Source: an uncultured Ruminiclostridium sp.
GTDB taxonomy: Bacteria; Bacillota; Clostridia; Oscillospirales; Ruminococcaceae
NCBI GenBank assembly: GCA_964456025.1
Contig: CAYVZH010000010.1
Coordinates: forward strand, 349 to 64,348
Length of the DNA stretch: 64,000 nt
Direction of reading: 5' to 3'
Program-made: the position numbers and the translations under genes
The notes under the pieces: model-generated
Databases searched by the model: none
What the model saw: only the letters and a program-made list of their open reading frames with translations
Told to the model about the DNA's origin: nothing
Shown here: positions 11,107 through 27,500 of the stretch, in pieces
How the letters are laid out: each line of letters starts with the position of its first letter
Position numbering within the stretch: position 1 is the stretch's first letter

Positions 11107-11166
11107 ATTTATGACCATTCCTTTCTTTCCTTTGGGTGCAGTTCTGCGAAAACCGCAGTCCTGCAA

Positions 11167-11856: not shown

Positions 11857-11900
11857 GACCGTTCCACCTATTATATGTATGATACTGATTTTTGATAAGC

Positions 11901-11932
11901 TTTACGGCGGGAACACCGGTTCCCGCCGTAAA
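11901..11932 (-). terminator. Intrinsic terminator downstream of gdhA
   Basis: Perfect stem TTTACGGCGGGAAC/GTTCCCGCCGTAAA. Confidence 0.7.
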
Positions 11933-11958
11933 CGCCGTTTTCTTGAATGATACGTGAA

Positions 11959-13335
<1,377 letters not shown>

Positions 13336-13580
13336 TTAACGGTCTGCCTTTTTTCTTCGCCCTCCGGCGCCGTTGTCGGGAGAGCGCTGTTTTCTTACTT
13401 TACTATTTTACCACATTCTTCCGAATTTTGCAATATTTTTTTTAAAAAATTTCGTTTTTATTTTTGGGGCAGGACTGCCGCTTCGGGCGTTCTTGTGAAA
13501 TAAGGAGAAATTTGACAAAACAGCGCTTTTCGTGTTATATTGATACCAACGAAAAGAACCGTTCTGGAAAGGAGCTTCCT

Positions 13581-14588
13581 ATGGCATTCGGATCTTTGGT
13601 CTTTGCGGGAATCGTATTGCTCGTGCTGTTCCTCGGCTTTTTATTCCTCGTCGGTTTGATCCTTTTGATCGTCGGGATCGTCCGGAAGAGAAAACCGAAA
13701 AACGCGGGGAAAAAATCGCCGGTCGTCTGCATCGTTTCGGGCGCGGTTTGTCTGCTCGCGCCGATCGGTACGGCGATTTGCCTTGTAATCAGTCTCGTCG
13801 TTTCCCTTTTCTCCGGTCGCTTTGGAGGTTCGGATTTCCGGAACGTCACCGAGGGTTGGCGAAAGGGCGGATACGTTTCGGATACGAAGGCGAAGTGGGA
13901 AGCGATCAACGGGCTTCTGACCGCCGCCGACGCGGGCGACCGCGATTCGTTTGAACGAATGTTTACGCCGCGGCTTCAAAAGAAAGGGAATTTCCGGGAA
14001 GCGATCGACGCTTTTTTTGAGTCCTATCCGAACGGGCTGTCTCTTTGCGAGCTGGACGGCGGGTACGGTATGACCACGGGGTGGCAGGTAGAAACGGCAA
14101 GCACCTCGTACACCTGTTTTCTCGACGGGGAATGGTATTATATGGGGCTTGAGATCTGTTTCAGAAATCCGGAGTCTCCCGACGACGTCGGCGTGACGTT
14201 TTTCTGTATCGAAAATCTCGAGGCATACGCGCTTGACCGCGATTACGGCAAGGACGAATTTGTCGCCTGTGAGATCAAGAACGAAAGCGAGGTGACCGCG
14301 CGTCTGATCAACAGGAGGGGATATCTGTTTACCCCGACGCCCGACCGCTCGATCACGGTCGAGCAAATGAAGAGCTATCTGGAAAAATACGATGATCTCG
14401 ACGATTTAGCCGCGCGGATCGGAAAGCCGAATGCTTCTAAACAATACAGCAACAGCAGAGGCGCCGATTATTGCTACGAGCTTGTCCCCGAAAACGGCGA
14501 GCCTAGATACGCGTGTATCGACGCGGATTATATTGGAGGGGAAAATTATTGGTATCATATCTGTTCGGACGTCGAAAAGCTGGATTGA
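13581..14588 (+). CDS. Hypothetical membrane-anchored protein (two N-terminal TM helices, DUF5104-like ectodomain possible)
   Basis: AAGGAG RBS before ATG 13581; two hydrophobic segments, then a soluble domain. TTGACA..TATATT promoter at 13512-13541. Confidence 0.6.
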   Translation: MAFGSLVFAGIVLLVLFLGFLFLVGLILLIVGIVRKRKPKNAGKKSPVVCIVSGAVCLLAPIGTAICLVISLVVSLFSGRFGGSDFRNVTEGWRKGGYVSDTKAKWEAINGLLTAADAGDRDSFERMFTPRLQKKGNFREAIDAFFESYPNGLSLCELDGGYGMTTGWQVETASTSYTCFLDGEWYYMGLEICFRNPESPDDVGVTFFCIENLEAYALDRDYGKDEFVACEIKNESEVTARLINRRGYLFTPTPDRSITVEQMKSYLEKYDDLDDLAARIGKPNASKQYSNSRGADYCYELVPENGEPRYACIDADYIGGENYWYHICSDVEKLD

Positions 14589-14675
14589 TACTCGCAATGA
14601 AAACCGCAGACAAGACCCCGTGAACAATTTTTCAGCAGCAATTCGGGCATTTTCCCGATCGGAAAGGACGATCTT

Positions 14676-15605
14676 ATGAAAAAAATGATTCCCCTGCTCC
14701 TCTCGGCATTTTTATGTTTTTCTGTTTTCACCGTTTTCGCAAGCGCGGAGTACGCGGAGGACGAGATGATCCGAAGCTGGCATATCTGTAATTCGGTAGA
14801 AACGGCTTATTGGCATGGAATTCTGACAACCGCTGTTTTGAAGACCGCCACGGTAAAGGATCAGACGGTCGCGGTCGGCAGAAACGAATCGCTGATCGTT
14901 CCGAAAAATGTGACCTTAGTCTTAAAGCGCGGCGCCCGGATCGACGGAACGGTCTATATCCATAAAGGCGGAAAGCTTCGGATCACGGATGGGAATCTTT
15001 CCGTTTCCCCTTCGGGCGCGGTGATCTCGGACGGGACTCTTTCGATCGGGAAAAAGGCGGAATTTACTGTTGAAAACGGCGGGGAGGTCTTTATCGGAAA
15101 AACGGGAAGGTTCATTCTTACGAGCGAGGAAAACCTGCGATTCGCGGATATGGCGACCGTTGTCTGCGTCGGGAAAACAAACGCGAAAAACGAAAAGATC
15201 GGAAAAAATCTGATCGCCGTTTATGTAACAAAAAACGGAGAAACGACCCTGTCGGAAGACCCCGAAGCGGAGCTTCCGAATGCGGAAATGTACGATTTGG
15301 ATTTTTATATTTCAGACCCGTCAACGATCAATTATTTTTTCGATAACGGGGTATGCTTCAGAGCGATCAGAGACCCTTGGTATGACTATATCGGAAAGGT
15401 TCGTATCTGTACGGCAGTCGGCTATACCTTTGATTATCTGTTGGAGAAAAATCGGGACTTAAATCCCCCGGGCGTAGGCACGCATTATTGCGAGGTGGAG
15501 ATCGTCGAGATCGACGGAGAGGACTGCTGGCTGGGAGACGACGGTTATGAACCCGTCCCCATTCTGCCCGTTTCGTCCGAGCTTGTCGATCCGTATGCCG
15601 CCTAA
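14676..15605 (+). CDS. Hypothetical secreted protein
   Basis: Signal peptide MKKMIPLLLS..ASA; Gly/Val-rich beta-strand repeats; followed by a terminator. Confidence 0.65.
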   Translation: MKKMIPLLLSAFLCFSVFTVFASAEYAEDEMIRSWHICNSVETAYWHGILTTAVLKTATVKDQTVAVGRNESLIVPKNVTLVLKRGARIDGTVYIHKGGKLRITDGNLSVSPSGAVISDGTLSIGKKAEFTVENGGEVFIGKTGRFILTSEENLRFADMATVVCVGKTNAKNEKIGKNLIAVYVTKNGETTLSEDPEAELPNAEMYDLDFYISDPSTINYFFDNGVCFRAIRDPWYDYIGKVRICTAVGYTFDYLLEKNRDLNPPGVGTHYCEVEIVEIDGEDCWLGDDGYEPVPILPVSSELVDPYAA

Positions 15606-15634
15606 ACCAAAATCTTCCATAATATAAGAAATTG

Positions 15635-15668
15635 CCCCCGAAGTCCGTAAGACTTCGGGGCCTTTCTT
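15635..15668 (+). terminator. Intrinsic terminator
   Basis: CCCCGAAGTC/GACTTCGGGG stem plus T-rich tail. Confidence 0.7.
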
Positions 15669-15819
15669 CTGCAATAAATGAAAAGCAAATTCTCCCCATT
15701 TCTGTGGAATCCGCCGATTTTAACCGCCGCGCCGCCAAAAAAGCCCGAAAGCTCTTGACGTACCCTCTTTTTTCATGTATTATTAAGATGTATGCCATAC
15801 TTACTAAAGGAGCATTTTC

Positions 15820-16470
15820 ATGTCTTCTGTTAAAATTGCCGCTTCCGTGCTGAATTCCGACCTTTCCGCGCTCGGAAAAACGGCGGAGCGGATCGCCGAA
15901 AGCGGGATCGAATACCTGCATTTCGACGTCATGGACGGCGAATTCGTCGAAAATATCACCTACGGGAGCGCCGTGCAGGCTTGTATCGGGAAAAGCTGCC
16001 CCGTCGCGATCGATACCCATTTAATGGTACAACACCCCGCGCGGCAGATCCCGCTTTTCGCGGCGGCGGGCTCGAAGATCATTACTTTTCACCTCGAAAG
16101 CGAGGGAGAACCCGCCGAGCTGATCGAAATGATCCGTTCCCGCGGGATCCGCGCGGGAGCCGCCCTCAAGCCGAATACCCCCGCCGAAGCGGTCTTCCCC
16201 TATCTGACCCGGCTCGATCTCGTGCTGGTCATGACGGTCGAGCCGGGCTACGGCGGACAGGGCTTTCTCCCCGAAATGCTCGGGAAGATCCAAGCGATCC
16301 GGGAGGAGGCAGACCGCCTCGGGAAAGAGCTCGACATCGAGGTGGACGGCGGGATCAACGAGAGAACCGCCCCCCTCGTGCGGGAGGCGGGCGCGAACCT
16401 CCTCGTCGCGGGAACGTATCTGTTCCGCGCGGATTCCCTTCGCGCGGCGGCGGATCGGCTCCGCGGATAG
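15820..16470 (+). CDS. rpe: Ribulose-phosphate 3-epimerase
   Basis: LHFDVMDGEFVENIT, DTHLMV, VMTVEPGYGGQ, IEVDGGIN. Confidence 0.96.
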   Translation: MSSVKIAASVLNSDLSALGKTAERIAESGIEYLHFDVMDGEFVENITYGSAVQACIGKSCPVAIDTHLMVQHPARQIPLFAAAGSKIITFHLESEGEPAELIEMIRSRGIRAGAALKPNTPAEAVFPYLTRLDLVLVMTVEPGYGGQGFLPEMLGKIQAIREEADRLGKELDIEVDGGINERTAPLVREAGANLLVAGTYLFRADSLRAAADRLRG

Positions 16471-16482
16471 TGTCAACAAGCT

Positions 16483-17058
16483 CTAAAACAGCCCCCCGAT
16501 CTTTTCCGCGGCGCTTTCCCCGCAGATCAGCCGGCCCCGTTCCGCCGCCGCGCGGATCCCGAGGTCGTCGGTAACGGTTTCTCCGTATTCGCCGATCAGG
16601 TGCTTCGCCGCCTCGGTCTCGCGCCGATCCCCCGAAAGGATCAGGCGGTAGCTTCCGTCCTCATAGGCGTAGACCCTTGTTTCGGCATTCCCGCAAAAGC
16701 GACAGAGCCCTGCGCAAAGGCGCACCAGAAGCGAAAAGCTCTCTACCCGTCCCATGACCTCGTACCGCGTATCGGGCGCTTCGCTGATCTCCCTTCCGGG
16801 GACGGTCTCTCCGATATTCGCCCCGAGGCTCGACACATACAGGATACAGCCGCCGTCCGCGCGGGGGAACGCCTCGAGAAAGAGCCGCTCCGCCTTATAG
16901 CCCGAAAAAAGCTTCATGCGCTTTAACAGGCGCGCAAGTCCCCGCTTTGTTTCGGCCGTCCTCGCGCAGAGCGTTTCGGCGCAGAGGGAATATTCCCGAA
17001 GCTCTTCTTCCGAAAGCGTGATTTTTACCGTGTTCCGGCTCAGTGAATCGTACCTCAT
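16483..17058 (-). CDS. MecA-like ClpC adaptor protein
   Basis: True start MRYDSLSRNTVKITLSEEEL after a GAGGAGG RBS; LFLEAFPRADGGCILYVS and LIGEYGE resemble MecA N- and C-domains. Confidence 0.7.
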   Translation of the reverse strand: MRYDSLSRNTVKITLSEEELREYSLCAETLCARTAETKRGLARLLKRMKLFSGYKAERLFLEAFPRADGGCILYVSSLGANIGETVPGREISEAPDTRYEVMGRVESFSLLVRLCAGLCRFCGNAETRVYAYEDGSYRLILSGDRRETEAAKHLIGEYGETVTDDLGIRAAAERGRLICGESAAEKIGGLF

Positions 17059-17223
17059 AAAAACCTCCTCTTCCCGTCTCCGGAAAACCGGAGAACGGGG
17101 AAAGCTATCATAAAAACAAAGGAAAATAGTTTGAAAAATCTGCGATTTTTCAAACCCGTCGTTTGTGCCTCGGCAAATCCTCTCGGCGCAAACTTCCTCC
17201 ATAGGAATGGAGTGATCATAATT

Positions 17224-18483
17224 ATGTCCGAATCGAAAAACGAGCTGCTCGACAAGTTCGACAGCAATACTCATGCGCCCGTTATCGCACCGAAGCGGAC
17301 GAGAAAGCAGAAATCCGTCTACGCGGATCAACTTCTCTGCCTGCTCCCCCTGCTCGGGCTCGGGATCTGGAGAAGCGGGGCGCGCGCGCTTGTGATCGCC
17401 GCGGTTTCCGTCCTCGTCTGTATGCTTTCCGACCTTCTCTTCTGCCGCATGACGAAAAAGACCTATAACCCGAAGGATCTTTCGACCTTCGCGTCGGGGC
17501 TTTGCATCGCGCTGATGATGCCCGCTTCGGTAGGCTATGGGATCGTCGTCTGCGGCGCGTGTCTCGCGATGGGGATCAAGCATATTTTCGGCGGAAAGGA
17601 TAATTACATCTTTAACCCGACCGCCGCCGCGATTGCCTTTCTCATTATCTGCTTCCCGCAGGAAATGCTGCTCTATCCTGCGAACGGCGTCCGCCCCGAT
17701 GTTTTCGCGGGGGCGGATACGACCGCGCTTGTGTCCGGAATCGAAAGCTATCTCATGAAGATCGGAACGGCGCCTACCGTTTCATTCCGCGATCTTCTGA
17801 TCGGGAATTACGTCGGGCCGCTCGGTACGACGCAGTTCCTTGTTCTCGCGGTCTGCGGCGTGTGCCTGATCGCGCGGCGCTCGGCGTCGCTTCTTGTGAC
17901 GGTTTCGGGGCTTGGCTCTTACTGCGCGCTGACCGCGCTGTTCCCGATTTATAACAGTATCGGGGACACCGTCCTGCTTGAGCTTACCGGCGGGTATCTC
18001 CTTTTCGGCTTTATCTTCCTCGCGAGCGACCCGCAGACGCTCCCGAAAACCGCCGCCGCGAAGATCCCTTACGGGATCCTGATCGGGGTGCTCGGCTGTC
18101 TGTTCCGCCATTTCGGAAAGGTCGAAGGCTCGTTCCTGTTCGTGCTCCTGATCGCGAACGCGCTTTCGCTGAATCTCGATACGCTCTGTGCCTCTGCACT
18201 TCTGAAGCTTAAAAACGCTGCCGCCTATCTGCTCCGGAACATGGGGCGGTACGAAAAGCTCCGCGAAACGGCGGGAGACGATTCCGCCCGAAAGCACCTT
18301 TCCGATACGATGGAAATTATTGTTCCACCGACAAACTATAATATGCCGCCCATCGACGGGAAAGTTACGAAAATTAAGCGCAGAAAATCGAACCCCCTGG
18401 CGCGTCTGGTCAGCTTATGCAGAATCCGGCTGAAAAAAGAGCTGAGTGTGCGGAAAAGCAGGAAAAACGGCGAACGAAAGTAA
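17224..18483 (+). CDS. RnfD/NqrB-like membrane protein (degenerate)
   Basis: GLCIALMMP, KHIFGGKDNYIFNP, IGNYVGPLG, FIFLASDPQTLP; the FMN-attachment (S/T)GAT motif is absent. Confidence 0.8.
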   Translation: MSESKNELLDKFDSNTHAPVIAPKRTRKQKSVYADQLLCLLPLLGLGIWRSGARALVIAAVSVLVCMLSDLLFCRMTKKTYNPKDLSTFASGLCIALMMPASVGYGIVVCGACLAMGIKHIFGGKDNYIFNPTAAAIAFLIICFPQEMLLYPANGVRPDVFAGADTTALVSGIESYLMKIGTAPTVSFRDLLIGNYVGPLGTTQFLVLAVCGVCLIARRSASLLVTVSGLGSYCALTALFPIYNSIGDTVLLELTGGYLLFGFIFLASDPQTLPKTAAAKIPYGILIGVLGCLFRHFGKVEGSFLFVLLIANALSLNLDTLCASALLKLKNAAAYLLRNMGRYEKLRETAGDDSARKHLSDTMEIIVPPTNYNMPPIDGKVTKIKRRKSNPLARLVSLCRIRLKKELSVRKSRKNGERK

Positions 18484-18495
18484 AGGATAGAACCA

Positions 18496-19431
18496 ATGGA
18501 AAAGAAAATCAGCCTGAAGGACGGGCTTTTTAAACAGAATATCGTTTTCATGAGCGGGCTTCTGACCGCTCCCGTGATCGCCTGTACGACGACGCTCCCG
18601 AAAAGCCTCGCGGTCTGCCTGGTTTTTTCGCTCGTTTCGTTCTTAACGATCACGGTCTGCCGCGCCGTTCCGCGGAAGATCGCCTATACCCTGCGCGTGA
18701 TCCTGTATTCGTTCGCGGCTTCGGCGTTTTATATCCCCGTTTACTTTTTTACGCTCGCCCTGTTCGGAAAGGCGGTCGTCGGCTCGGCGGGCGTTTATCT
18801 CCCGATCCTTGTCACGAACGGACTGATCCTCTCCAAGACCGAGACACGCTTTTACGGCGAGCCGATTCCCGATATGATCCTCGATACGGCGGTGTTTATC
18901 CTCGGCTTCGACGGGGCGTGTATCCTCGTCGGCGCACTTCGGGAAATTCTTTCGGCGGGGACGCTCGGGGGGAACTATCTCCCGCTCCCGTTTACGATCC
19001 CGGCGCTTGAAACGACCTTCGGCGGATTCCTTTTTGTGGGAATCCTCGCGGGGCTTTTCCGGGGAATCTACAATCACCGGAAGGCGCAGCTTCTCGCGCC
19101 CGAACCGGAGGACGGCGAGGAATCCCTCGCGGAATACGCCGAGGATATGGGCGAATTCCTCGCCGGAGGACTTACGGGGCGGAAGACGGACGCGGATAAG
19201 CCCGAGAAGATCAGGATCTATCACTCCGGAAAAAAGAAAAAACGTCCGCCCGCGAACCTGCTTGAGGTGGAATTTAAGGATAACAGCTCCGTTGTAGAAG
19301 AATTTGCCGCGATCGTCGCGGGGGCGGCAGAGCTTGAGGCAGCGGCGGACTCGGAAGGGGAGAACCCTGCACCGCAAGAAGAAACGGAAGAACAAGCGGA
19401 AAACAGCGAAAGGGAGGGCGAGGACAAATGA
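18496..19431 (+). CDS. RnfE/NqrD-like membrane protein (degenerate) with acidic C-terminal tail
   Basis: GLFKQNIVF, LPILVTNGLIL, ILVGALREILSAG; conserved Cys residues are replaced. Confidence 0.8.
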   Translation: MEKKISLKDGLFKQNIVFMSGLLTAPVIACTTTLPKSLAVCLVFSLVSFLTITVCRAVPRKIAYTLRVILYSFAASAFYIPVYFFTLALFGKAVVGSAGVYLPILVTNGLILSKTETRFYGEPIPDMILDTAVFILGFDGACILVGALREILSAGTLGGNYLPLPFTIPALETTFGGFLFVGILAGLFRGIYNHRKAQLLAPEPEDGEESLAEYAEDMGEFLAGGLTGRKTDADKPEKIRIYHSGKKKKRPPANLLEVEFKDNSSVVEEFAAIVAGAAELEAAADSEGENPAPQEETEEQAENSEREGEDK

Positions 19432-20024
19432 ACGTATTTTTAAGCTTCGTATCCGCCGCGCTCCTCGCGGTCTTTGTCCAGAACTCGGTTCTGGAGCGCG
19501 CTCTCGGCGTCAACGTCCTTTTATACGCCTCGCGGAAAAAGGAACACCTCCCCGGCTTCTTCTTCGCGATCACCTATGTCACGACGATCTCCTCCGCGAT
19601 CGTCTGCGGGCTTGACAGGCTTCTGAGCGGGTGGGAATATTACGCCGCCGTTATGCCGATTCTATATATAACGGTCGTAAGCATGGTCTATATCCTGACG
19701 CTCGTGGTGATCTGGTGGTTTTTCCCCCGTCTCTTCCGCTCGCTCAAAAAATACGTTCATCTTTCGGTTTTCAACTGCTCGGTCATCGGCGCGCTCTTTC
19801 TGGGCGGACAGCTCGGCGGCGATCTCCCCTCCTATCTCGGCTACGGCTTCGGGACGGGGGTCGGCTTTCTCGTCGCGGCGTATCTTCTCTATATCGCGCG
19901 CGACCGCCTTTACTCGCCGCTTGTGCCCGCGGCGTTCCGCGGATTTCCGATCATGACGGTCTATGTCGGGATCCTTTCCCTCGCACTGTACGCGTTTACG
20001 GGGTATTCGACGGCGGCGAGGTGA
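19428..20024 (+). CDS. RnfA/NqrE-like membrane protein (degenerate)
   Basis: FVQNSVLERALG, FNCSVIG, GTGVGF, AAFRGFPI..VGILSLA; overlaps the upstream stop (ATGA). Confidence 0.8.
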   Translation: MNVFLSFVSAALLAVFVQNSVLERALGVNVLLYASRKKEHLPGFFFAITYVTTISSAIVCGLDRLLSGWEYYAAVMPILYITVVSMVYILTLVVIWWFFPRLFRSLKKYVHLSVFNCSVIGALFLGGQLGGDLPSYLGYGFGTGVGFLVAAYLLYIARDRLYSPLVPAAFRGFPIMTVYVGILSLALYAFTGYSTAAR

Positions 20025-20028
20025 CCAA

Positions 20029-20128
20029 TACTATTTCACTTCCAATGTGTAGACAAAAATTCTGCACAAAATCCATTTATCCAAGATTTTGTTTGAATTT
20101 TTGTACACATTTAGGTCGTGAAATAGTC
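20029..20128 (-). mobile_element. Family A palindromic MITE-like element (reverse orientation)
   Basis: TACTATTTCAC..GTGAAATAGT termini; the interior is the reverse complement of 1890-1990; begins 5 bp after the rnfA-like stop. Confidence 0.7.
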
Positions 20129-20261
20129 AACTTCCTTTTGCGAAACGAAAACTTTTTTGCAGGGTATTTTCGTTCCCTTTCTCTATGCTTCTTCGTTTTA
20201 AATAAGGTTTGTGCATTTTTTGTTCCTTTGGCTGACCAAAGGAACCGAAAGTTCACCTCGG

Positions 20262-20335
20262 CAAAAGCTTTGCTTGCGCCGCGTCCGTGCGGCGCCTTGG
20301 GCTTTTGCCTGCAAGCCTCCTGCTTGCCCTCTGCG
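20262..20335 (-). repeat. Family B sub-module (reverse)
   Basis: Reverse complement CAGGAGG..CCCAAGGCGCCGCACGGACGCGGCGCAA matches 3345-3400 and 63560-63615. Confidence 0.65.
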
Positions 20336-20732
20336 CTGTTCTCAACCCGTTTGTACAAAGAAGAAAGGTAAGAGAAAAGAACAAGGCTCGTTTCTTTTTA
20401 AATCCTATCTTAATTTCTCCAAGCTTCCCCCATTGTACAATCAAGTTTGAACTGTGCAGTCCTCAATTGTACTGCACAAAGACACAGAACACCCCCCTTG
20501 CAGTCAATCAAGAGCGACGGAGGTATTCGGTTCCGGCAGAGATCGGTAAAAAATAACAGGAAATTGCCGCTGTACGGATTTTCTTCCCCGGGTTTATTAT
20601 AACTCCTCTCGGCGCTTACTCTGACCGCTTTTTTCGTCCCGCAAGTTTAAAAGATGAAAAAAGAGTTGAGGAGAAGCGACGAGAGGCGACTTTCCGCCGC
20701 TTTGGTCGGTCAAAGCGGCAAAAATAAACAAG

Positions 20733-20815
20733 CTTTCGCTTCCTTTCGCCGCCGAAAGGAGGCAGGGGTGTGGGGACGGCGTCCCCACAATAAAATAATT
20801 TTTCTCTTATTATCT
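20733..20815 (+). repeat. Family B arm (solo)
   Basis: TTTCGCTTCCTTTCG..CGAAAGGAGGCAGGGGTGTGGGGACGGCGTCCCCAC plus T-rich tail. Confidence 0.65.
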
Positions 20816-20847
20816 CTCTTATTTCCCACAAAAAGAAGGTGAATCCC

Positions 20848-22017
20848 ATGAAAAACCGCAGGCGCTACGGACGGAAGATCAAGCGCAGCAAGACCAATCT
20901 CTACAAGCGAAAGAAAACGCCGGCGCAGAAGGCGTTCGGTACCGTGCTGCTCATTATCGGGGTCTGCGCGGCGGTTTTTCTCGGCTACTGTCTCGGGAAG
21001 CCGCTTCTCGAATTCCTTGAGAAAGCCGCTGAAAGGGAACAGCCGGAATGGACGCCGCCCGTGACGTCCACGACCCCCGCGGAGACCGAGCCGGACGGAA
21101 CCGACGCGCCGGACGCAGCCGAAACGGAGGAAACGAAGCCTGCGGCGGAAGAAAAAACCAAAGCGATCACCGCCCCGAGCACCGCGCTTTTAAACTCCTC
21201 GTCTCTCTCGGCGTTCGCGGTGCGGGCGAAAAACGACGGCTACAACACCGTGCTTTTCGAGCTGAAGGACGAAGGCGGCTGCCTGCATTACGCTTCGCCG
21301 ACCGCCGCCGCGATGAGCGAGGAGCTGATCCTCTCGCCGCTTACCGCCGCGGAAATTTCCGAAACCGTCCTGAACGCGGGACTGACGCCGATCGCCGCCG
21401 TTTCCGTACTCTCGGACGACGCGGGCTGCCGCGCGAACCCCGATCTGAGCTATAAGATCGTGGGCGAGAACGTTTCCTGGCTCGATTACAGCGGCGATAT
21501 GCCCATTCGCCACGTCAACCCCGAAAGCAAGGCGGCCGCGGAGTATCTGAACGCGATCGTCGGCGAGCTGAACGACGCGGGGATCACGGTTCTCCTGAAA
21601 GACCTCGCTTTCCCCGATTTTCAGCCGTATGACCGCAGATATATCGCGGAAAAATATTTTGAGGAGAGCCGAAGCGCCCTTCTCGCCGCGCTCGTCCCCG
21701 AGAATGTTCCCGTCGAAATGCTTGCGGAGGACGTTTTAGCGGAAAATTACGGACGGACGGCGGAGCTTCTGCGCGAGCGAAGCTTTACCAGCCGTGAAAA
21801 CGCAAGTATCGCGGTACGGATCCGCCGCGAAAGCTTCCCGACCTCCGAAGGCTATCCCGCCGACGCGGCGGGGCTGATCGAGGATCTTCTCGCGCGGATC
21901 CGCTTAAAAACCGGCGCGGTCACGGTCATTCCCGTGATCGAAAGCGGCGGCTTCTCGGCGGCGGAGCTTTCCTCGATCCAGAAGCTTCTGACGGATCGGA
22001 GCTATATTATCGCATAA
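20848..22017 (+). CDS. Membrane-anchored putative glycoside-hydrolase-like (DUF4015-like TIM barrel) protein
   Basis: Basic N-tail, one TM helix, Pro/Thr linker, NTVLFELKDEGG resembling xxDxKDxxG of DUF4015-type proteins. Confidence 0.55.
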   Translation: MKNRRRYGRKIKRSKTNLYKRKKTPAQKAFGTVLLIIGVCAAVFLGYCLGKPLLEFLEKAAEREQPEWTPPVTSTTPAETEPDGTDAPDAAETEETKPAAEEKTKAITAPSTALLNSSSLSAFAVRAKNDGYNTVLFELKDEGGCLHYASPTAAAMSEELILSPLTAAEISETVLNAGLTPIAAVSVLSDDAGCRANPDLSYKIVGENVSWLDYSGDMPIRHVNPESKAAAEYLNAIVGELNDAGITVLLKDLAFPDFQPYDRRYIAEKYFEESRSALLAALVPENVPVEMLAEDVLAENYGRTAELLRERSFTSRENASIAVRIRRESFPTSEGYPADAAGLIEDLLARIRLKTGAVTVIPVIESGGFSAAELSSIQKLLTDRSYIIA

Positions 22018-22082
22018 ATTTAATTTTCGGAAATATTCCGAGATCTTTCGACAAGCTGTCACCGGAGAAACAGAAAAACCGC

Positions 22083-22111
22083 TTGATTTTTTCCGGAAAA
22101 TATAGTATACT
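22083..22111 (+). promoter_or_regulatory. Sigma-A promoter of the RNHCP-yajC unit
   Basis: TTGATT-17-TATACT; the spacer contains the palindrome TTTTCCGGAAAA. Confidence 0.6.
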
Positions 22112-22351
22112 AAGAACATGTCTTCACAAGAGAATTGCACATCTTTTCGGAAAAATTGCCGCAGACTTTGTCAAATTTCCTTGAAATCCGAAAGGATTCC
22201 CGCAAAAATTTTCCGCGTCTGCAACAATTTTTCTCCGAAAATCCGCACAATCCTCTTATGAAGACAAGTTCCAAGACGATCTCATATCCAGAGATTTTTC
22301 GGGCGGCACGCCTGCCCTAAAAATAAAACCCGAAGAAAGGAGTAATGATTC

Positions 22352-22399
22352 ATGATGAAAAATGCGATTGCGGCGGTGCGGGAGGACTGCGCCGGTTAA
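22352..22399 (+). CDS. Putative leader peptide MMKNAIAAVREDCAG
   Basis: AAGGAG RBS 9 nt upstream; its 3' end overlaps a stem competing with the anti-SD of the downstream gene. Confidence 0.6.
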   Translation: MMKNAIAAVREDCAG

Positions 22400-22451
22400 T
22401 CCCGCGTTCCTCCCGAAGAATGAAGAAAAAACCGCTTCATTTCAGGAGGAA
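22379..22451 (+). promoter_or_regulatory. Putative translational attenuator (anti-anti-SD / anti-SD / SD)
   Basis: CGGGAGGA (22379-86) pairs with TCCTCCCG (22408-15); TTCCTCC (22407-13) alternatively pairs with the RNHCP SD GGAGGAA (22445-51). Confidence 0.6.
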
Positions 22452-22453
22452 AC

Positions 22454-22912
22454 ATGAAAAATCAAAATGATTACGGAAACAGGCGGCTGAATCTGCCCTT
22501 TTCCTGTAAAAACTGCGGTTATCCCGTAACGCCCGAGGGGGCGGGAAGCGGACACCGCAACCACTGTCCGAACTGTCTGTACAGCCTTCATCTCGACGAG
22601 CTTCCCGGCGACCGCGCTTCCGACTGCGGCGGGCTGATGGAGCCGATCACGGTGTGGGTAAGGAAAGGCGGCGAATGGGCGATTCTGCACCGCTGCAAGC
22701 GCTGCGGAAGGATCGTCTCGAACCGGATCGCGGCGGACGACAGCCCGGTAAAGCTGATGAGCATCGCGCTGAAGCCCCTTTGCGAACCGCCGTTCCCGAT
22801 CGAACGGATCCGGGAACTGACCGAAACGGAGGACACGTCCGAAACAGACAAAATCACAAAAACCGAAGAACATACGCGCCCGACAGGCGCAAAAGAAAGG
22901 AACAAGACATGA
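22454..22912 (+). CDS. RNHCP domain-containing zinc-binding protein
   Basis: CKNC..HRNHCPNCLYSLHLD..GDRASDCGGLMEP..HRCKRCG..NRIAADD. Confidence 0.92.
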   Translation: MKNQNDYGNRRLNLPFSCKNCGYPVTPEGAGSGHRNHCPNCLYSLHLDELPGDRASDCGGLMEPITVWVRKGGEWAILHRCKRCGRIVSNRIAADDSPVKLMSIALKPLCEPPFPIERIRELTETEDTSETDKITKTEEHTRPTGAKERNKT

Positions 22913-23268
22913 CCGAAGCAATGACATTTTTAGCGGCAACCGCAGAGGATTCGACCGCGGCGGCAAGCGGCACCTCCATGCTGATGACCTTTATCCCGCT
23001 TGTGCTGATGCTGGTAGTTTTTTATTTCCTGCTGATCCGTCCCGAGAAAAAGCGGGCGAAGAAGATGAAGGAAATGCTCGATAATTTACAGGTCGCGGAC
23101 GAGGTCGTGACGACGGGCGGCATTATCGGACGGGTTCTGAGCGTAAAGGACGATACCGTCCTGATCGAGACGGGCGGCGACCGTACCCGGATCCGGATCC
23201 TCAGAAGCTCGATCGCCGAGAACCGCACTACGCATGACGATGTGGAATCGGTAACGATTAAGAAGTAA
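22909..23268 (+). CDS. yajC: Preprotein translocase subunit YajC
   Basis: FYFLLIRPEKKR..DNLQVADEVVTTGGIIG; start overlaps the upstream stop (ATGA). Confidence 0.92.
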   Translation: MTEAMTFLAATAEDSTAAASGTSMLMTFIPLVLMLVVFYFLLIRPEKKRAKKMKEMLDNLQVADEVVTTGGIIGRVLSVKDDTVLIETGGDRTRIRILRSSIAENRTTHDDVESVTIKK

Positions 23269-23294
23269 CCCCCGAAGAACAATCGGGGAGCGGT

Positions 23295-23332
23295 AAAAAA
23301 CCGCACGGAAGCCTGCGCGGTTTTTCCTTTTT
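23295..23332 (+). terminator. Intrinsic terminator after yajC
   Basis: AAAAACCGC..GCGGTTTTT stem with T tail. Confidence 0.65.
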
Positions 23333-23376
23333 TCGTTATCTCCTTCCAAAGATTTTTAAGCACAAAGGGGCTGTCT

Positions 23377-23913
23377 ATGACTGTTGATGATCTGCAAATC
23401 GTGAATTACTGCCACCATAGCTGTACTCCGCTGCTGAATATTATGCGTCTGCCGAAAAAGGAAGCCTTTGCGCTCGCGCGTGAAATGGCAGTACAAAACA
23501 AGGAAACTACCGCGTTTTACAGATTTGCCGATTTTGAAAATTATTATCCCGAACGCCTGAAAACGGACAGGCTGTTATACGACCGCTTTATAAAGCTCGG
23601 AGGGAAGCCTTTACAGGAGCACCCGCTTTCGTTTGTGCTGCAGGGAAGTGATTTTCTGAACGGCTGGTTTGACCGCGGAATCGTCACAACAATACCATTG
23701 AACCGTATTGATTCAGATTATATCAGCTTTACCTATGGAGACAGCATGACTACACTCAAAATAAACGGTGAATTTACGATGCTTACCAAAGATATGCTTT
23801 TAAAGGCAATATCTGATTATGACGGCACGCCGGAGGATTTTTTGACGAATGCTGATCATCAGTACCGTTATATAGAAGCGCAAGTTTGGAACGACGATTG
23901 TTTGAAAGTATAA
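23377..23913 (+). CDS. Hypothetical protein (accessory, lower GC)
   Basis: 178-aa ORF with a GGGG RBS; AT-richer codons than the flanks; no motif recognised. Confidence 0.65.
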   Translation: MTVDDLQIVNYCHHSCTPLLNIMRLPKKEAFALAREMAVQNKETTAFYRFADFENYYPERLKTDRLLYDRFIKLGGKPLQEHPLSFVLQGSDFLNGWFDRGIVTTIPLNRIDSDYISFTYGDSMTTLKINGEFTMLTKDMLLKAISDYDGTPEDFLTNADHQYRYIEAQVWNDDCLKV

Positions 23914-23928
23914 TCGGGCAGTGATAGC

Positions 23929-24495
23929 ATGAACGATCTGATTTTGACAATTCCCGCAAAGGAGCACGAGGCGCAAGTAATGGCATTTCGCGAGGAAATG
24001 CAAAGAAACCGAGAGGGCTTTTACGGGTGTTCCGGGCTGAATAATACGTCCAATTATGATGATTGGCTTGATTTTGAAGGACGATTTATGCGCTTTGGCT
24101 GGACACCGTCAACGACATATCTCGGCATTCGTGTCTCTGACGGTCTGCTTATCGGAATGATTGACCTCAGACATGAACTCTCCGGTTTTTTGCTAAAATA
24201 TAACGGTCAAATCGGATATAGCGTTCGACCCTCGGAGCGTGGAAAGGGGTACGCCGCTCTTATGCTGTCGCTTGTACTCAAAGAAGCAGAAAGTTTTGGA
24301 TATAAAAGAGTTCTTGTATGCTGCAACAAGGCAAATTCCCGATCTGCCAGAGTGATACAAAAGTGCGGCGGCATACTTGAAAATGAAGTTATTCACGAGT
24401 ACAGTCCTGTGGATAGACCTGATATTATCCAAAGATACTGGATTGACATAGACAGCGGTCGGAAAACGAATATTGTTCCGGAAAAAATTGAATGA
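23929..24495 (+). CDS. GNAT family N-acetyltransferase
   Basis: LIGMIDLRH..GQIGYSVRPSERGKGYA..CNKANSRSARVI. Confidence 0.9.
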   Translation: MNDLILTIPAKEHEAQVMAFREEMQRNREGFYGCSGLNNTSNYDDWLDFEGRFMRFGWTPSTTYLGIRVSDGLLIGMIDLRHELSGFLLKYNGQIGYSVRPSERGKGYAALMLSLVLKEAESFGYKRVLVCCNKANSRSARVIQKCGGILENEVIHEYSPVDRPDIIQRYWIDIDSGRKTNIVPEKIE

Positions 24496-24533
24496 TAAAA
24501 ACCGTCATATATTGGACGGAATGAAATTAGAAA

Positions 24534-24566
24534 ACAACCCCCGAAGCACAAGCTTCGGGGGTTTCA
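24534..24566. terminator. Bidirectional intrinsic terminator
   Basis: AACCCCCGAAGC/GCTTCGGGGGTT between convergent genes. Confidence 0.7.
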
Positions 24567-24581
24567 CTATTGCAATTCAAA

Positions 24582-27500
24582 TCAATACTTTCGGAAGCTC
24601 TGCACCAACAGCACGGGCAGAATCCAGAAAAGCTGATACGCCATGATGACCGTCGGGGAAAAGACAAGCGTTTTCGTCGAAATCGCGAAGATCACGCCGA
24701 GTACCGCGGCGAGGAATACCCCCGCAAGCATGACCGTCTGGGAAAGATTTACGTCACGGATCAGCTTTTTCGCCGCGCAGATCGCCCGCGCGAAGCCGCC
24801 GAAGCTCCCGTTTCCGGAAAACGCGCCGCAGCCGCTCGAGGTATACCGGGTGCACTCGTTAAAGTGCTCGTGGAGATTGCTTCCGATGATCTTGATGGAT
24901 TCCGGCTCAAGATCGAACAGGTCGGCGATCTTTCCGACCGTAATGATCGAATCGACCGATTTCAGCACGAGCGAAACGCCCTGTCCCGTAAGCTCTCGAA
25001 GGCTCGCGCGGATCGACTCGTTCGCCGTCAGGCGGATAAAGAAGATGATCGTAAGCTCGCCGCCGACCGCGAGATAAACCGCGTCCGAGCCGTTCCGGCA
25101 GTATTTCGCGATCGCGCTCAGCTCGGGGACCTTGATCCCGTGGTGCTTCATTTGTTCGCGGTTCCCCATGATGAGCCGCTTATTTCCGTACCAGCCGAGC
25201 ACGCCCATATTGTCCTCACAGACGCAGCCCTCGATCTCCTCGAGAAGCTCCTCCTTCCCGCCGATCATCTCGAAAAACAGGCGGGAGAAGATCGAGCCGG
25301 TCTTGATCGAAAGGCTCGCGGCGAGAATGATCGCCTGATCGAGCGAGATGTTATTGACGGAATTTTGCAGGCGGCAGGGCTTCAGGTTCGTACATTCCAC
25401 GCTCGAAGCGGGGAAGATGGACGAAACGTCCGTCATGACCGCGTTCGTGTGACTGAATTCCTCCGCCGTCCCATAGCCGAGAATGGTGCTCCCGCTTTTT
25501 AAAAGCGACTTTGTCGCGCGGCTCAGCGGGCGGTTTACGATCAGCATGATCGAGAGGGGGGAGAAAATGCACAAAAAGGCGTTCAATACCGTAACTGTCC
25601 AATAAATGTTGTTCTGCATTCCTTCGTCCGCGTTCGGGATCAGGAATACGAGCAGCGAGGTGATCACCCCAAGCACCAGCGAGAGGAACACCAGCACACG
25701 GGAGATCCGATCCGCCTTATCCTCGCCGTAGCTTTTTTTCAGGAAATCGGTTAAGTACTCGGTCTTCCGCATGACCGCCAGGACGGGAAGCTCGCTCACC
25801 ACGCCCTTTGTAAACGCGCCGACCGCCGTTTCATCTTCACAGAGCTCGGCGTAATACCGGCTCCCCTCCGCGCAGGTAAACCGGAAATTTTTCCGCGCGC
25901 GGGAGATCATTTCAAGCTTTCCCAAGGTGTTAAAGAGCAAGCCGAGCAATGCGGCGGGGATCATAAGATAGGCGCGGCTTCGCTGGAGATAATCGGTATT
26001 GACGAGGTTCAGAACGCCCGCCAGCAGGGAGACCGTCGAGGCGACCGCGCAAAGGCTGTCGCAGTCCGCTTTTTTCTTGAAAAGCTTTACGATCCCGCTC
26101 CGAACCGCCGCCGCGCAAAGGAGAATCCCGAGCACGCCGCCGATCAGGTTGAAATAAATAAATCCGTCGGTGTTATACCGCTTATCGAGAAAGTCGATCT
26201 CGGTACCGAAAAGGTTAAAGACGAGCGTCGCGCCAAGCTCCTGCGCGACCGTCACGCCGCAAACGATCACCGAGAGGATCAGGAGTAGGATAAACCGCGT
26301 CCGGAGGCTTTTCTGCGTTTCCTCCAGGTCATAGCGGATCTGCTCGCTGTTCTCGTCCTCTTCCTCCGGCTCCGTGTCGTCGTCGAAATCGTAATCGTCG
26401 GAATCGTCGTCGCCGATGTCCTCAAGGACGAAATCGGAAATTTTCCGCTTTCGCTTCGACGAAAGGTATTTCATTTTCTGCTCCGAGATCACGGGGTTTT
26501 CGGTCGGGATCTCGCCCGTCTGCGGCATTGCCGCGAGGGACGGGTCAAATCCGACGGGCGCGGTCGTCGGCTGCACCTGTTCAAGCTGCGCCGTGACCGA
26601 AACGGGAGACTGAGTCTGACGGTCGTCGAGCCGTTTCCGCTCGATCGTTTTATTGATGGATTCGACGATCGGGTCGGGACGAACTGCCCCGCCCAACTCG
26701 ACCGTGCTTTTTTCAAAGACCGAATCCTTTAAGACAAAGGTTTTTTCGAGGTCGACCGAGGGCCGCTCGCGAAGCGCCGTCCCCGGCATGATTACGGTTT
26801 CCCCGCTGATGATCTGGGTGACGGACTGATCCGAAGCTTTCGCGTTTTCCCGCGCGATCCGCTTCAGATCCGTCCCCGCGACCCCGACGGTATCTCCCGA
26901 AAGCTGCTGTGCCGGGATCGTGTCAATGATCTGTGAAAGATCACGCACCCCGTCGTCGTAGGGATTGATCGCCGCGAGAAAATCGTCGGGATCCTCCATT
27001 ACGCTTTCCCGCTCGAGAAGCTTCTGCGCGTTCTCCCGCACCTTCCGATCCCGGATCGAACGCTCCAGCTCGAGTTCCGCCGTCGTCGGCGGGGCGGGCT
27101 TTTTCTCCGCCGGCTCCTCGATCTTCGGAAGCTCGATCGGAACCTCCTCAAATACGATGTTCTTCGTCGCGAACTGCCGCTCGGATTCCTCCTCCTGCTT
27201 CTGCTTTTCCGCCGCTTCCTTTTCAAGCGCCGCGCGCTCCTCCTCGTCGGACGCGGCAATCTTTGCCGCTTCCTCCTCCTTGCGCTGCCGCGCTTCTTCC
27301 TCGAGGCGCTTCCGCTCGGCTTCAAGCTCTTCCTCACGGCGGCGCTTCGTTTCGGCGCGGCGCTCCTTCTCGGCGATCAGCTCCCGCCGCGCGCGCTCCT
27401 GTTCCTCGAGGAATTTCTGCCGCTGCTCGCGTTTTTCGCGTTCCGCCTGTTCTTGCTTCAGGCGCCGCGCTTCCTCGCGCTTGCGCTCCTCTTCCGCCAT

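Follow-up and report, generated by a model that had tools for sequence, protein, structure and literature searches.

Anaerobes and pathogens have Rnf, the Na+/H+-translocating ferredoxin:NAD+ oxidoreductase, and Na+-NQR as central energy converters, and the way in which these move ions is debated. Among the current proposals are a route across NqrB/RnfD and an alternating-access step at the iron-sulfur site of RnfA/E; alternating-access behaviour has been described for RnfA/E, and the residues NqrB-D397 and NqrD-D133 are important for Na+ translocation (PMC12901251). In a further group, the NQR/RNF-like systems, RnfD is fused to an NqrF-type NAD-binding domain and is found in flavinylation (ApbE/FMN_bind) clusters. 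Most of these systems come from Actinobacteria and CPR, and their electron transfer is presumed to run in one direction (PMC8238504).

The locus analyzed here, from the genome of an uncultured gut member of the Clostridia, contains homologues of only three Rnf/Nqr subunits, which we call D', E' and A'. It seems to encode a respiratory pump which has been turned into something else, the cofactor sites being lost and the residues linked to Na+ mostly kept. The literature searched held no description of such a module.

Genes and family assignment

The three genes lie in a row in the window, i.e., the whole 64 kb stretch of DNA that was analyzed:

17224..18483, + strand: D', RnfD/NqrB-like membrane protein, 419 aa, with a TM core (about residues 29-320) and a basic C-terminal tail
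18496..19431, + strand: E', RnfE/NqrD-like membrane protein, 311 aa, of which the C-terminal tail (nt 19093-19428) is acidic
19428..20024, + strand: A', RnfA/NqrE-like membrane protein, 198 aa

The gap between D' and E' is 12 nt, E' and A' share a 4-nt ATGA overlap, and the genes are translationally coupled. All three proteins pass the Pfam gathering thresholds of their superfamilies: D' scores 194.6 bits (E 3e-57) with PF03116, cutoff 27.7, and E' and A' score 71.6 and 88.1 bits with PF02508, cutoff 23.8. The best PDB matches are an RnfD chain for D', an RnfE chain for E' (9eri_E at 1.7e-10) and an RnfA chain for A' (9eri_A at 1.3e-16). The AF2 model of D' resembles RnfD 7zc6_D with a TM score of 0.67 (Foldseek), and RnfD/NqrB overall with TM 0.5-0.67. 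The family assignment is thereby far beyond chance. The identity to canonical subunits is only 25-27%, and all three proteins fall far under every NCBIfam cutoff for Rnf or Nqr: D' reaches 115 with rnfD TIGR01946 (cutoff 207), E' reaches 49-53 bits with its best model, RsxE/rnfE (cutoffs 184-213), A' reaches 76.8 with rnfA TIGR01943 (cutoff 229), and the nqrB/D/E models give 27-89 bits where 235-414 are required.

An earlier note on this DNA reported homologues of D, E and A alone, with no rnfC, G or B nearby. The searches agree with this. Pfam, run on all neighbours between 10222 and 27782, gave no RnfC, RnfG or RnfB and no FMN_bind or ApbE protein; phmmer with RnfC, RnfG and the degenerate RnfC of some relatives (C', see below) as queries gave no match in the whole window; and a scan of all its ORFs for the ferredoxin-type motif CxxCxxCxxxC gave none. 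No second D/E/A paralogue and no gene for NqrA, NqrC or NqrF was found in the window. Of the RnfCDGEAB set the window thus contains D, E and A homologues only, and what characterizes Na+-NQR (the subunits NqrA, NqrC and NqrF, FMN at T236 of NqrB and the cysteine ligands of NqrD/E) is lacking.

Cofactor sites and acidic residues

The stretches which correspond to the flavin site and to the [2Fe-2S] ligands of Rnf are:

17698..17718, + strand: D', DVFAGAD (D159-D165), probable relic of the motif for FMN attachment, with Asp in place of the Thr, from an ungapped HMMER alignment to NqrB
17731..17748, + strand: D', loop motif VSGIES (in the family L-x-S-G-[ILV]-E-S-Y-L), with G172 in 76/85, E174 in 80/85 and S175 in 74/85
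18562..18573, + strand: E', LTAP at the first of the former Fe-S ligand sites (canonical L-C-P), column A59/G23 of 84 in the alignments
18814..18825, + strand: E', TNGL at the second of the former Fe-S ligand sites (canonical N-C), Cys column P28/S28/A22, never C (n=84)
19506..19517, + strand: A', GVNV at the first of the former Fe-S ligand sites (canonical G-x-C-P), column N57/S22/C1 of 80
19770..19781, + strand: A', Fe-S ligand site 2, FNCS, with the Cys kept in this genome, C117 column C54/A20/S4/V2

The earlier note placed the lost flavin site of D' at VSGIE. The loss of the threonine stands, and the location is probably off. HMMER aligns D159-V-F-A-G-A-D165 of D' without gaps to D230-G-Y-S-G-A-T236 of V. 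cholerae NqrB, about eight residues upstream of VSGIE. MAFFT and hhalign choose other registers, in which the flavin threonine falls on G172 or S171, inside VSGIES. The AF2 model of D' has a pLDDT below 50 in this loop, so structure is unable to fix the register, which is ambiguous between D165, S171 and G172; of these we prefer the ungapped NqrB alignment. The DVFAGAD stretch itself is variable across the family, and a conserved S/T is absent. In none of the three registers, among 85 family members, did we find a Ser or Thr in the ApbE-type context D-x-x-(S/T)-G-A-(T/S), and D' does not carry the Thr/Ser motif by which RnfD holds its covalent FMN.

For E' and A' the alignments bear out the motifs which the earlier note had read from the letters. 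The canonical 'lgmCPtla' and 'vvNC' of RnfE fall on LTAP and TNGL, and 'LGiCPfLG' and 'ttNC' of RnfA fall on LGVNV and FNCS. Of the four cysteines which bind [2Fe-2S] in Rnf, two in RnfA and two in RnfE, this genome has kept one. The first position in E' is A or G in 82/84 sequences, and the first in A' is N or S in 79/80. C117 of A' is replaced by A, S or V in 26/80 sequences and is thus dispensable in the family. All four positions are lost family-wide, in about 80 genomes, at variance with the possibility that the ligands are shifted but present. As a candidate for a shifted ligand, Cys30 of E' lies nearby in only 31/84 sequences, and there is no other conserved cysteine pair at the A/E sites. 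The surroundings of the lost cluster are kept: the half-helix N and P motifs of E' and A' remain, with E' P26 in 83/84, E' N108 in 84/84, A' N116 in 80/80 and an invariant A' F115, and small residues have replaced the cluster cysteines. New conserved cysteines are found in D' (C74 in 83/85, the counterpart of Cys148 in NqrB, as well as C143 and C214) and in E' (C55 and C142, which are not conserved in the wider clade). They could have an unforeseen ligand.

NqrB-E144 and NqrB-D346 have roles in the ion path according to mutagenesis work. Their equivalents in D' are D70, conserved in 85/85 sequences, and D269, conserved in 84/84. The equivalent of NqrB-D397 is D319 (83 D and 1 E), and that of NqrD-D133 is D130 of E' (78 D and 6 E). 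The counterpart of NqrE-E95 in A' is Thr or Ser, non-acidic, so that D'E'A' departs from the current Rnf model at its A/E ion site. As judged from these alignments, most of the residues linked to Na+ transport are kept in D'E'A'.

The module in Oscillospirales

The trio is accompanied by three further genes:

15820..16470, + strand: rpe, ribulose-phosphate 3-epimerase, PF00834 at 215.8 bits, the syntenic anchor, beside the module in nearly all loci
16483..17058, - strand: MecA-like adaptor gene, divergent, PF05389 at 41.2 bits (cutoff 22.5), adjacent in 76/84 loci
20848..22017, + strand: DUF4015 protein, PF13200 at 25.8 bits here, under the cutoff of 27, and at 106 bits in the related locus L007

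The order rpe, MecA-like gene on the opposite strand, D', E', A', DUF4015 gene is found in about 80 genomes, which represent a narrow clade only, since the genome scan used alignment A1, the broader alignment A2 being too diverse for this purpose. The synteny also extends to distant members. Locus L008, to which the window is 96% identical, has the full gene order in common with it. The DUF4015 gene lies 3' of A' in most loci, here with about 800 bp extra in between, and is absent from loci L006 and L088; a few genomes have D' and E' only. In an NJ tree the ligand-less proteins cluster together, away from canonical RnfD, and the ligand motif separates the matches cleanly at about 165-176 bits. 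With its lost ligands, the absence of RnfG and RnfB, the link to rpe and the MecA-like and DUF4015 genes, the present locus belongs to this group. Basal relatives, among them the cultured Zongyangia hominis and Caproicibacter fermentans, have in addition the degenerate RnfC, C', from which the NADH/FMN motif has gone. It keeps both [4Fe-4S] motifs (CxxCxxCxxxCP), and the wider clade may thus retain redox sensing or chemistry to some extent. D'E'A' is part of a conserved Oscillospirales module. The term "stand-alone" in the earlier note is too strong in view of the MecA-like and DUF4015 neighbours and of C' in the basal relatives.

The DUF4015 protein has an N-terminal TM anchor, a disordered linker and an extracytoplasmic (beta/alpha)-barrel which is glycoside-hydrolase-like (AF2 pLDDT 84). 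Foldseek with this model leads to Cwp19, the C-domain of PgaB and GH20.

The genes are under strong purifying selection, with a dN/dS (D' 0.03-0.16, E' 0.04-0.18, A' 0.02-0.15) which does not exceed that of the flanking rpe and yajC. The loss of subunits and of cofactor ligands would fit an rnf operon in decay, its genes on the way to becoming pseudogenes. The ORFs are intact and translationally coupled, dN/dS stays within 0.02-0.18, and a clade spanning 30-96% identity carries conserved new motifs. We give the decay model practically no credence; the selection analysis rules it out, and the relaxed selection that would have spoken against the earlier note is not seen.

Long charged C-terminal tails on D and E had also been reported, and the counts agree: residues 325-419 of D' contain 25 K/R vs 9 D/E, and residues 200-311 of E' contain 31 D/E vs 13 K/R. 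The acidic tail of E' is limited to the nearest subclade. The tail of D' contains a linear motif:

18304..18372, + strand: D' tail motif DTMEIIVPPTNYNMPPIDGKVTK (residues 361-383), from alignment A1

The residues D361, T362, E364, I365, N371, Y372, M374, P375, D378, K380 and K383 are invariant in A1. The motif is present in 73/84 loci, only in the clade without C', and is probably disordered in the modelled monomer (pLDDT below 50). Its 'EIIVP' may resemble the ComS/ComK peptides recognized by MecA. As a marker of an adjacent MecA-like gene the motif fails, since six loci have the motif and no adjacent MecA.

The region between the MecA-like gene and D' is 40-100 nt in most relatives and is not conserved, and scans for sigma-70 promoters and terminators gave results near chance level. 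Rfam gave nothing at the gathering threshold in the 64 kb, with noise only at E <1, and PADLOC found no match to a defence system. The locus is present in none of the RNA runs, and even in the best DNA runs no more than 31% of the sampled words are shared. A lead to a Rex site (PMC9600882) was uninformative, the species in question having no module beside rpe.

Possible functions and comparison with known systems

The earlier note read the trio as a repurposed non-redox membrane complex, either ion channel, scaffold or sensor. The analysis supports such a reading, the non-redox character being judged from sequence, and since the acidic residues linked to Na+ are retained a role in ion handling is favoured among the three. 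D'E'A' would most likely be a non-redox, ion-conducting or ion-driven membrane module. Our best explanation, which we hold tentatively and at somewhat less than an even chance, is that it is a paralogue of the Rnf/Nqr membrane core, functional and under selection, which has lost electron transfer across the membrane and, uncoupled from redox chemistry, binds or conducts a cation (Na+ or H+); more speculatively, it is coupled to DUF4015. According to this model D', E' and A' still assemble as an Rnf-like membrane unit. The small residues at the former cluster cysteines would leave a cavity in the middle of the membrane, and the unit, binding or conducting Na+ or H+ with no redox step, would serve as a gated conduit for ions or as a conformational transducer which is driven by ions or senses them. 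The more speculative part is that the output is coupled to the co-conserved, membrane-anchored, glycosidase-like DUF4015 ecto-protein, the link between the two being gene order only. The layout of DUF4015, one TM helix and an outside domain, is that of the missing RnfG. On the cytoplasmic side coupling might go through the basic tail motif of D', which is confined to the lineage that lost C'. A bolder version, which we consider decidedly unlikely, takes D'E'A' as an engine-less pump transducing ion-motive force: Na+/H+ flux or binding along the acidic pathway would do conformational work on DUF4015 as a glycan hydrolase in the place of RnfG. If true, this would be a new class of machine for energizing or regulating the envelope, with a logic like that of ExbBD/TolQR/MotAB or FtsEX and an origin in Rnf.

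Other models have to be considered. The complex could be a pure scaffold or allosteric regulator which conducts no ions and positions or activates the DUF4015 ecto-enzyme, or recruits cytoplasmic partners through the D' and E' tails. FtsEX, which controls cell-wall hydrolases without transport, is the precedent. The operon-like linkage to a membrane-anchored barrel of the Cwp19/PgaB type, the adjoining MecA-like adaptor and the tail motif, which is conserved and probably disordered in the way typical of peptides that bind a partner, are in line with a scaffold. It leaves the invariant buried acidic residues tied to Na+ handling unexplained, and DUF4015 and MecA are each missing at some loci which have the trio; we regard a pure scaffold as possible and rather unlikely. 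A solute channel or secondary transporter, in which a small molecule in place of a coupling ion would pass through D', as in channels of the urea/ammonium type, or be carried by alternating access of the inverted E'/A' pair, is unlikely. The retained half-helix motifs with small residues at the cluster site would suit it, as would the alternating access of RnfA/E (PMC12901251), and Foldseek gave faint echoes of urea transporter and Amt/Rh at ranks 18, 29 and 39. These resemblances are weak (TM about 0.3, E about 0.3-1), and no substrate-related neighbour, riboswitch or regulator was found at the locus.

It is improbable that the unit is still a redox machine with unconventional cofactors, be it the new cysteines, a non-covalent flavin in D' or the [4Fe-4S] centres of C' in the relatives. 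The new cysteines of D' and E' and the two intact motifs of C' point in this direction. Against it, RnfG, RnfB and C' are absent from this locus, C' lacks its NADH/FMN motif, no flavinylation motif appears in any register, the E' cysteines are not kept in the wider clade, and the one remaining in A' can be dispensed with. Finally, the proteins might be alternative or dominant-negative subunits which swap into a canonical Rnf encoded elsewhere and modulate or silence it. One related species in culture carries a complete rnfCDGEAB as a separate set (PMC9600882), and the two systems may therefore coexist in the order. D'E'A' has its own conserved partners and locus, and at 25-27% identity its interfaces have probably diverged from those of canonical Rnf, which counts against a swap; we find this very improbable.

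Compared with the NQR/RNF-like systems (Meheust et al., 2021), the non-redox ion module which we prefer is likewise a partial Rnf/Nqr derivative around an RnfD/NqrB homologue. It falls outside their definition: D' matches PF03116 only, and there is no fusion, no FMN_bind/ApbE neighbour and no flavinylation motif. The closest relatives are the C'D'E'A' modules with DUF4015 in Zongyangia hominis, Caproicibacter fermentans and Caproiciproducens sp., which belong to the same clade, with the same rpe-linked locus and ligand loss, and differ in having C' and lacking the D' tail motif. These carriers are cultured, so the function can be tested by experiment. The C'-bearing relatives and others are annotated just as 'RnfABCDGE type electron transport complex subunit D', and with this label on D' an Rnf-based energy metabolism may be wrongly inferred when the metabolism of abundant Oscillospirales of gut and rumen is reconstructed.

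With Na+-NQR (NqrB/D/E of V. cholerae, 7xk3) the module shares the putative relic DxxxGAx and equivalents of E144, C148, D346, D397 and NqrD-D133; it differs in that NqrA/C/F are missing here, T236 has become Asp, the Fe ligands are gone and NqrE-E95 is Thr/Ser. With Rnf (7zc6, 9eri, 8ahx) it shares the fold of the three subunits, the D-E-A order, the half-helix N/P motifs and several membrane acidic residues. The differences are that G, B and (here) C are absent, that the clade as a whole has lost all four [2Fe-2S] cysteine positions as well as the FMN-Thr motif, that charged tails have been added to D' and E', and that DUF4015 and the MecA-like protein are new partners. D'E'A' may thus be seen as a natural dissection of redox and ion functions, in which the redox centres have been shed and residues of the NqrB-D397 and NqrD-D133 type kept. 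Should ion handling persist, the module shows which parts are sufficient for it, and if not it shows other uses of the Rnf/Nqr fold.

Assignment of the trio and selection on its genes

Three genes on the forward strand make up the trio, and we denote them with primes after the subunits that they resemble:

17224-18483, + strand, D', RnfD/NqrB-like membrane protein, ORF of 419 aa
18496-19431, + strand, E', RnfE/NqrD-like membrane protein, ORF of 311 aa
19428-20024, + strand, A', RnfA/NqrE-like membrane protein, ORF of 198 aa

For D' the start ATG at 17224 is favoured over an upstream TTG by the family N-terminus 'MS(E/D)...'. A 12-nt gap separates D' from E', and the stop of E' and the start of A' share an ATGA overlap, so the genes look translationally coupled. 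The trio belongs to the superfamilies PF03116 (NQR2_RnfD_RnfE; D', 194.6 bits) and PF02508 (Rnf-Nqr; E' and A', 71.6 and 88.1 bits), in each case far over the Pfam gathering cutoff. The subunit names proposed in an earlier note, made from the sequence alone, agree with NCBIfam, in which E' scores highest with the RsxE/rnfE models and A' with rnfA; these scores are well under the curated cutoffs (rnfD 115 versus 207, rnfE 49 versus 213, rnfA 77 versus 229), and the nqrB/D/E models score still lower. The PDB sequence matches are RnfD/NqrB, RnfE/NqrD and RnfA/NqrE chains only. The AlphaFold2 model of D' (mean pLDDT 64.5; 70-90 in the transmembrane core) superposes on NqrB and on RnfD of C. tetanomorphum, A. 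woodii and A. vinelandii with TM-scores of 0.5-0.67.

The dN/dS ratios were calculated by the Nei-Gojobori method on 11 genome pairs with dS of 0.08-1.1. The values were 0.03-0.16 for D', 0.04-0.18 for E' and 0.02-0.15 for A', similar to those of the flanking genes rpe (0.07-0.23) and yajC (0.03-0.16, one outlier pair aside). Relaxed selection, which the earlier note had named as the mark of decaying pseudogenes, is not what a range of 0.02-0.18 indicates, and decay of the trio is ruled out by these low values.

The ligand-less D' clade is deep. D' has 245 matches at E<=1e-10 in a 90%-clustered database, and an exhaustive search of a 50%-clustered one gave 163 representatives at E<=1e-30 with scores declining smoothly from 598 to 126 bits; the top canonical RnfD of known structure reaches just 92 bits. 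In a simple neighbour-joining tree (314 columns, no bootstrap) the ligand-less proteins all lie apart from canonical RnfD/RsxD. Database labels for the members of the clade are simply RnfD.

Cofactor sites and ion-path residues

Canonical Rnf carries a [2Fe-2S] cluster on cysteines of RnfA and RnfE and a covalent FMN on a threonine of RnfD. In the alignments E' has 'gLLTAPviacT' opposite canonical 'lgmCPtlavT' and 'VTNGLIL' opposite 'vvNCiil', and A' has 'LGVNVLLY' opposite 'LGiCPfLG' and 'VFNCSVIG' opposite 'ttNCaVlG'. Three of the four Fe-S cysteines are lost, as had been read from the sequence, and the window keeps A' Cys117 alone. The columns were counted in 80 named genomic loci with a D' relative and a few metagenomic loci, the 80-genome scan sampling only a narrow clade; the first cysteine position of E' is A in 59 and G in 23 of 84, the second is P (28), S (28) or A (22) and never C, the first of A' is N in 57, S in 22 and C in 1 of 80, and the position of Cys117 is C (54), A (20), S (4) or V (2). 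This family-wide replacement answers the objection that the ligands might be shifted and still present; E' Cys30, the candidate for such a ligand, is found in just 31 of 84 sequences. The residues beside the missing cysteines remain (E' P26 in 83/84, E' N108 in 84/84, A' N116 in 80/80), so the half-helix architecture round the former cluster is preserved with the metal ligands swapped for small residues.

Some cysteines which are not ligands in canonical Rnf, Cys74, Cys143 and Cys214 of D' and Cys55 and Cys142 of E', occur in 79-83 of 84-85 sequences of the narrow clade; conservation of the two in E' does not extend to the wider clade.

The earlier note also held that D' lacks the flavinylated threonine and located the site at VSGIE. 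The absence stands; the location is probably wrong, since HMMER pairs window residues D159-V-F-A-G-A-D165 without gaps with D230-G-Y-S-G-A-T236 of V. cholerae NqrB. The NqrB side of this register is backed by a T236Y mutant entry, and the alignment to C. tetanomorphum RnfD places the flavin threonine at the same D' position. MAFFT and a profile-profile comparison, unlike HMMER, place it at G172 or S171, within 'VSGIES'. The flavin loop is of low confidence in the AlphaFold2 model, residues 159-168 are variable across the family, and 'L-x-S-G-[ILV]-E-S-Y-L' is conserved. In none of the alignment registers does D' have a Ser/Thr preceded by G-A. Among the representatives listed from the 50%-clustered search the canonical flavin motif is found in 0 of 150, and among the matches to a distant clade member S/T-(G)-A-T-P appears only in proteins below ~165 bits, which, where checked, come from ordinary rnfC-D-G-E-A loci.

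Residues of the window proteins, their equivalents in V. cholerae Nqr by HMMER alignments, and residues found across the family
D' D70; NqrB-E144; D in 85/85
D' C74; NqrB-C148; C in 83/85
D' D269; NqrB-D346; D in 84/84
D' D319; NqrB-D397; D in 83, E in 1
E' D130; NqrD-D133; D in 78, E in 6
A' T91; NqrE-E95; T in 48, S in 30

We take NqrB-E144 and NqrB-D346 to belong to the same mutagenesis set as the other ion-path residues. NqrB-D397 and NqrD-D133 are important for Na+ translocation, and in the current Rnf model Na+ is captured when the RnfA/E [2Fe-2S] cluster becomes reduced, and this reduction drives an inward/outward switch (PMC12901251). All electron-transfer elements are gone, while of the three ion-path residues supported by the literature two are invariant, as are those of D' generally, so the loss is selective. 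As it lacks the defining features tested here, the trio does not count functionally as an Rnf or Na+-NQR.

The conserved neighbourhood

The description of the trio as stand-alone is correct in that no rnfC, rnfG or rnfB lies in the 64 kb window. Pfam finds nothing Rnf-related in any neighbour from 10222 to 27782 (families: MscS, DUF554, a glutamate dehydrogenase context, DUF5104-like, Rpe, MecA, DUF4015, RNHCP), phmmer with two canonical RnfC, four C' (a degenerate RnfC-like subunit of basal relatives) and two RnfG as queries matches no window ORF, and no ORF of the window has the ferredoxin motif CxxCxxCxxxC. The description fails in that the trio sits within a larger module: nearly all 80 genomes share the order rpe(+), MecA-like(-), D', E', A', DUF4015(+), usually with yajC adjacent. 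All 80 are uncultured MAGs from gut, rumen or termite, labelled Ruminiclostridium sp., Oscillospiraceae or Ruminococcaceae; locus L008, at 96% identity, is closest to the window, and the same arrangement is seen again at 30-35% D' identity. Loss of the module can occur: Caproicibacterium lactatifermentans shares the rplM-rpsI-DUF348-rpe-spoVT-rimP-nusA region, in which spoVT directly follows rpe.

C' lies between MecA and D' in Zongyangia hominis (L089:8773-9972) and in L090 (5751-7001), and directly after rpe in L007 (6800-8020) and Caproicibacter fermentans (L088:8982-10004). Both CxxCxxCxxxCP [4Fe-4S] motifs survive in it, along with a trace of SLBB, and the glycine-rich NADH/FMN motif of RnfC ('GMGGAGYP' in a canonical neighbour) reads 'D-E-x-D-G-x-x-L' in 4/4. 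To judge from these motifs C' is a degenerate RnfC, an Fe-S protein without obvious electron donor or acceptor. Since the C'-bearing lineages are basal in the tree, its loss in the window's clade appears secondary. A D' tail motif that hardly varies, DT(M/Q)EI-x(5-7)-NYNMP-x-ID-x-K-x-x-K, marks exactly this C'-less clade (73/84 loci, never in C'-bearing D'). The long charged tails noticed earlier are strongly basic in D' (net +16) and strongly acidic in E' (net -18), the latter restricted to the nearest subclade.

In the AlphaFold2 model of the DUF4015 protein (pLDDT 84, barrel >90) a disordered linker joins an N-terminal transmembrane helix (25-61) to a (beta/alpha)-barrel. By structure the protein most resembles a hypothetical protein of C. 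thermocellum (4s1a), Cwp19 of C. difficile, the C-terminal PNAG-hydrolase domain of PgaB and GH20 enzymes; Cwp19 is described as a lytic transglycosylase with a part in autolysis (PMC6016235). Predicted fold and matches point to a membrane-anchored, outward-facing, glycan-hydrolase-like protein. Its co-transcription with A' is uncertain in the window, where the gap holds ~800 bp without counterpart in L008.

Three segments are extra relative to L008: 13474-15655, an insert of 2.2 kb whose two ORFs encode a membrane protein that matches DUF5104 weakly and a secreted 309-aa protein of no family; 17076-17219, 144 nt between MecA-like and D', with an inverted repeat of 13-bp stem at 17128-17156; and 20025-20823, the AT-rich non-coding DNA before DUF4015, with no Rfam match. 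A 49-nt stretch of the A'/DUF4015 intergenic region of L008 (10861-10909) resembles window 63508-63555, 43 kb off, at 92% identity and could belong to a short repeat dispersed among intergenic regions. D' and E' occur without A' or DUF4015 in a small subclade (L035:9319-10988, L037:2450-4116, L038:2304-3964), where the gene after E' encodes a protein whose CxxC...CPxC N-terminus resembles a zinc ribbon. The ORF at 24582-27782 (-) encodes 1066 aa, very rich in K/E over the N-terminal third and with several TM segments in the C-terminal part, and matches no Pfam family at E<=0.01; by eye its C-terminal half might be a degenerate P-type ATPase, with 'MTDVSS' at the place of DKTGT.

Possible mechanism and known systems

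The trio represents a conserved and selected clade of Rnf cores without cofactor ligands and with partners of its own, and it is very probably a functional, non-canonical paralogue incapable of Rnf-type transmembrane electron transfer. D'E'A' would assemble like the Rnf membrane core and bind or conduct Na+ or H+ without redox coupling, acting as a gated conduit or an ion-dependent conformational transducer in which the conserved acidic residues and the space vacated by the cluster would do the work. The output might be coupled to the DUF4015 ecto-enzyme and, through the D' tail motif, to a binding partner in the cytoplasm. To this composite, a redox-free ion unit with both outputs, we give somewhat less than an even chance.

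Besides decay, its rivals are a pure scaffold or regulator, for which the kept ion-path residues have to be accounted for, a solute transporter, an unconventional redox complex, which would have to work with the canonical ligands gone, and a swap of these subunits into a canonical Rnf. A second D/E/A paralogue was not found in the window, and a separate rnfCDGEAB is present in a related cultured species (PMC9600882). It should be noted that Table 1 of that paper gives for 'rpe GJQ69_09515' expression values (118 to 624, log2 3.05) which its supplement (file 5) assigns to the DUF348 protein GJQ69_09525, with rpe unchanged; the mismatch affects any use of the paper's Rex-site claim.

In open-access papers and bioRxiv no description of the trio's clade was found under RnfD/E/A paralogues, Rnf and sporulation, DUF4015 or G/B-less Rnf-like clusters. 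The DUF4015 protein would share with RnfG the layout of a single transmembrane helix and an outside domain. Published 'partial Rnf/Nqr' systems were found only in the form of RnfD-NqrF fusions, which are associated with flavinylation in Actinobacteria and CPR (PMC8238504) and are different from the trio.
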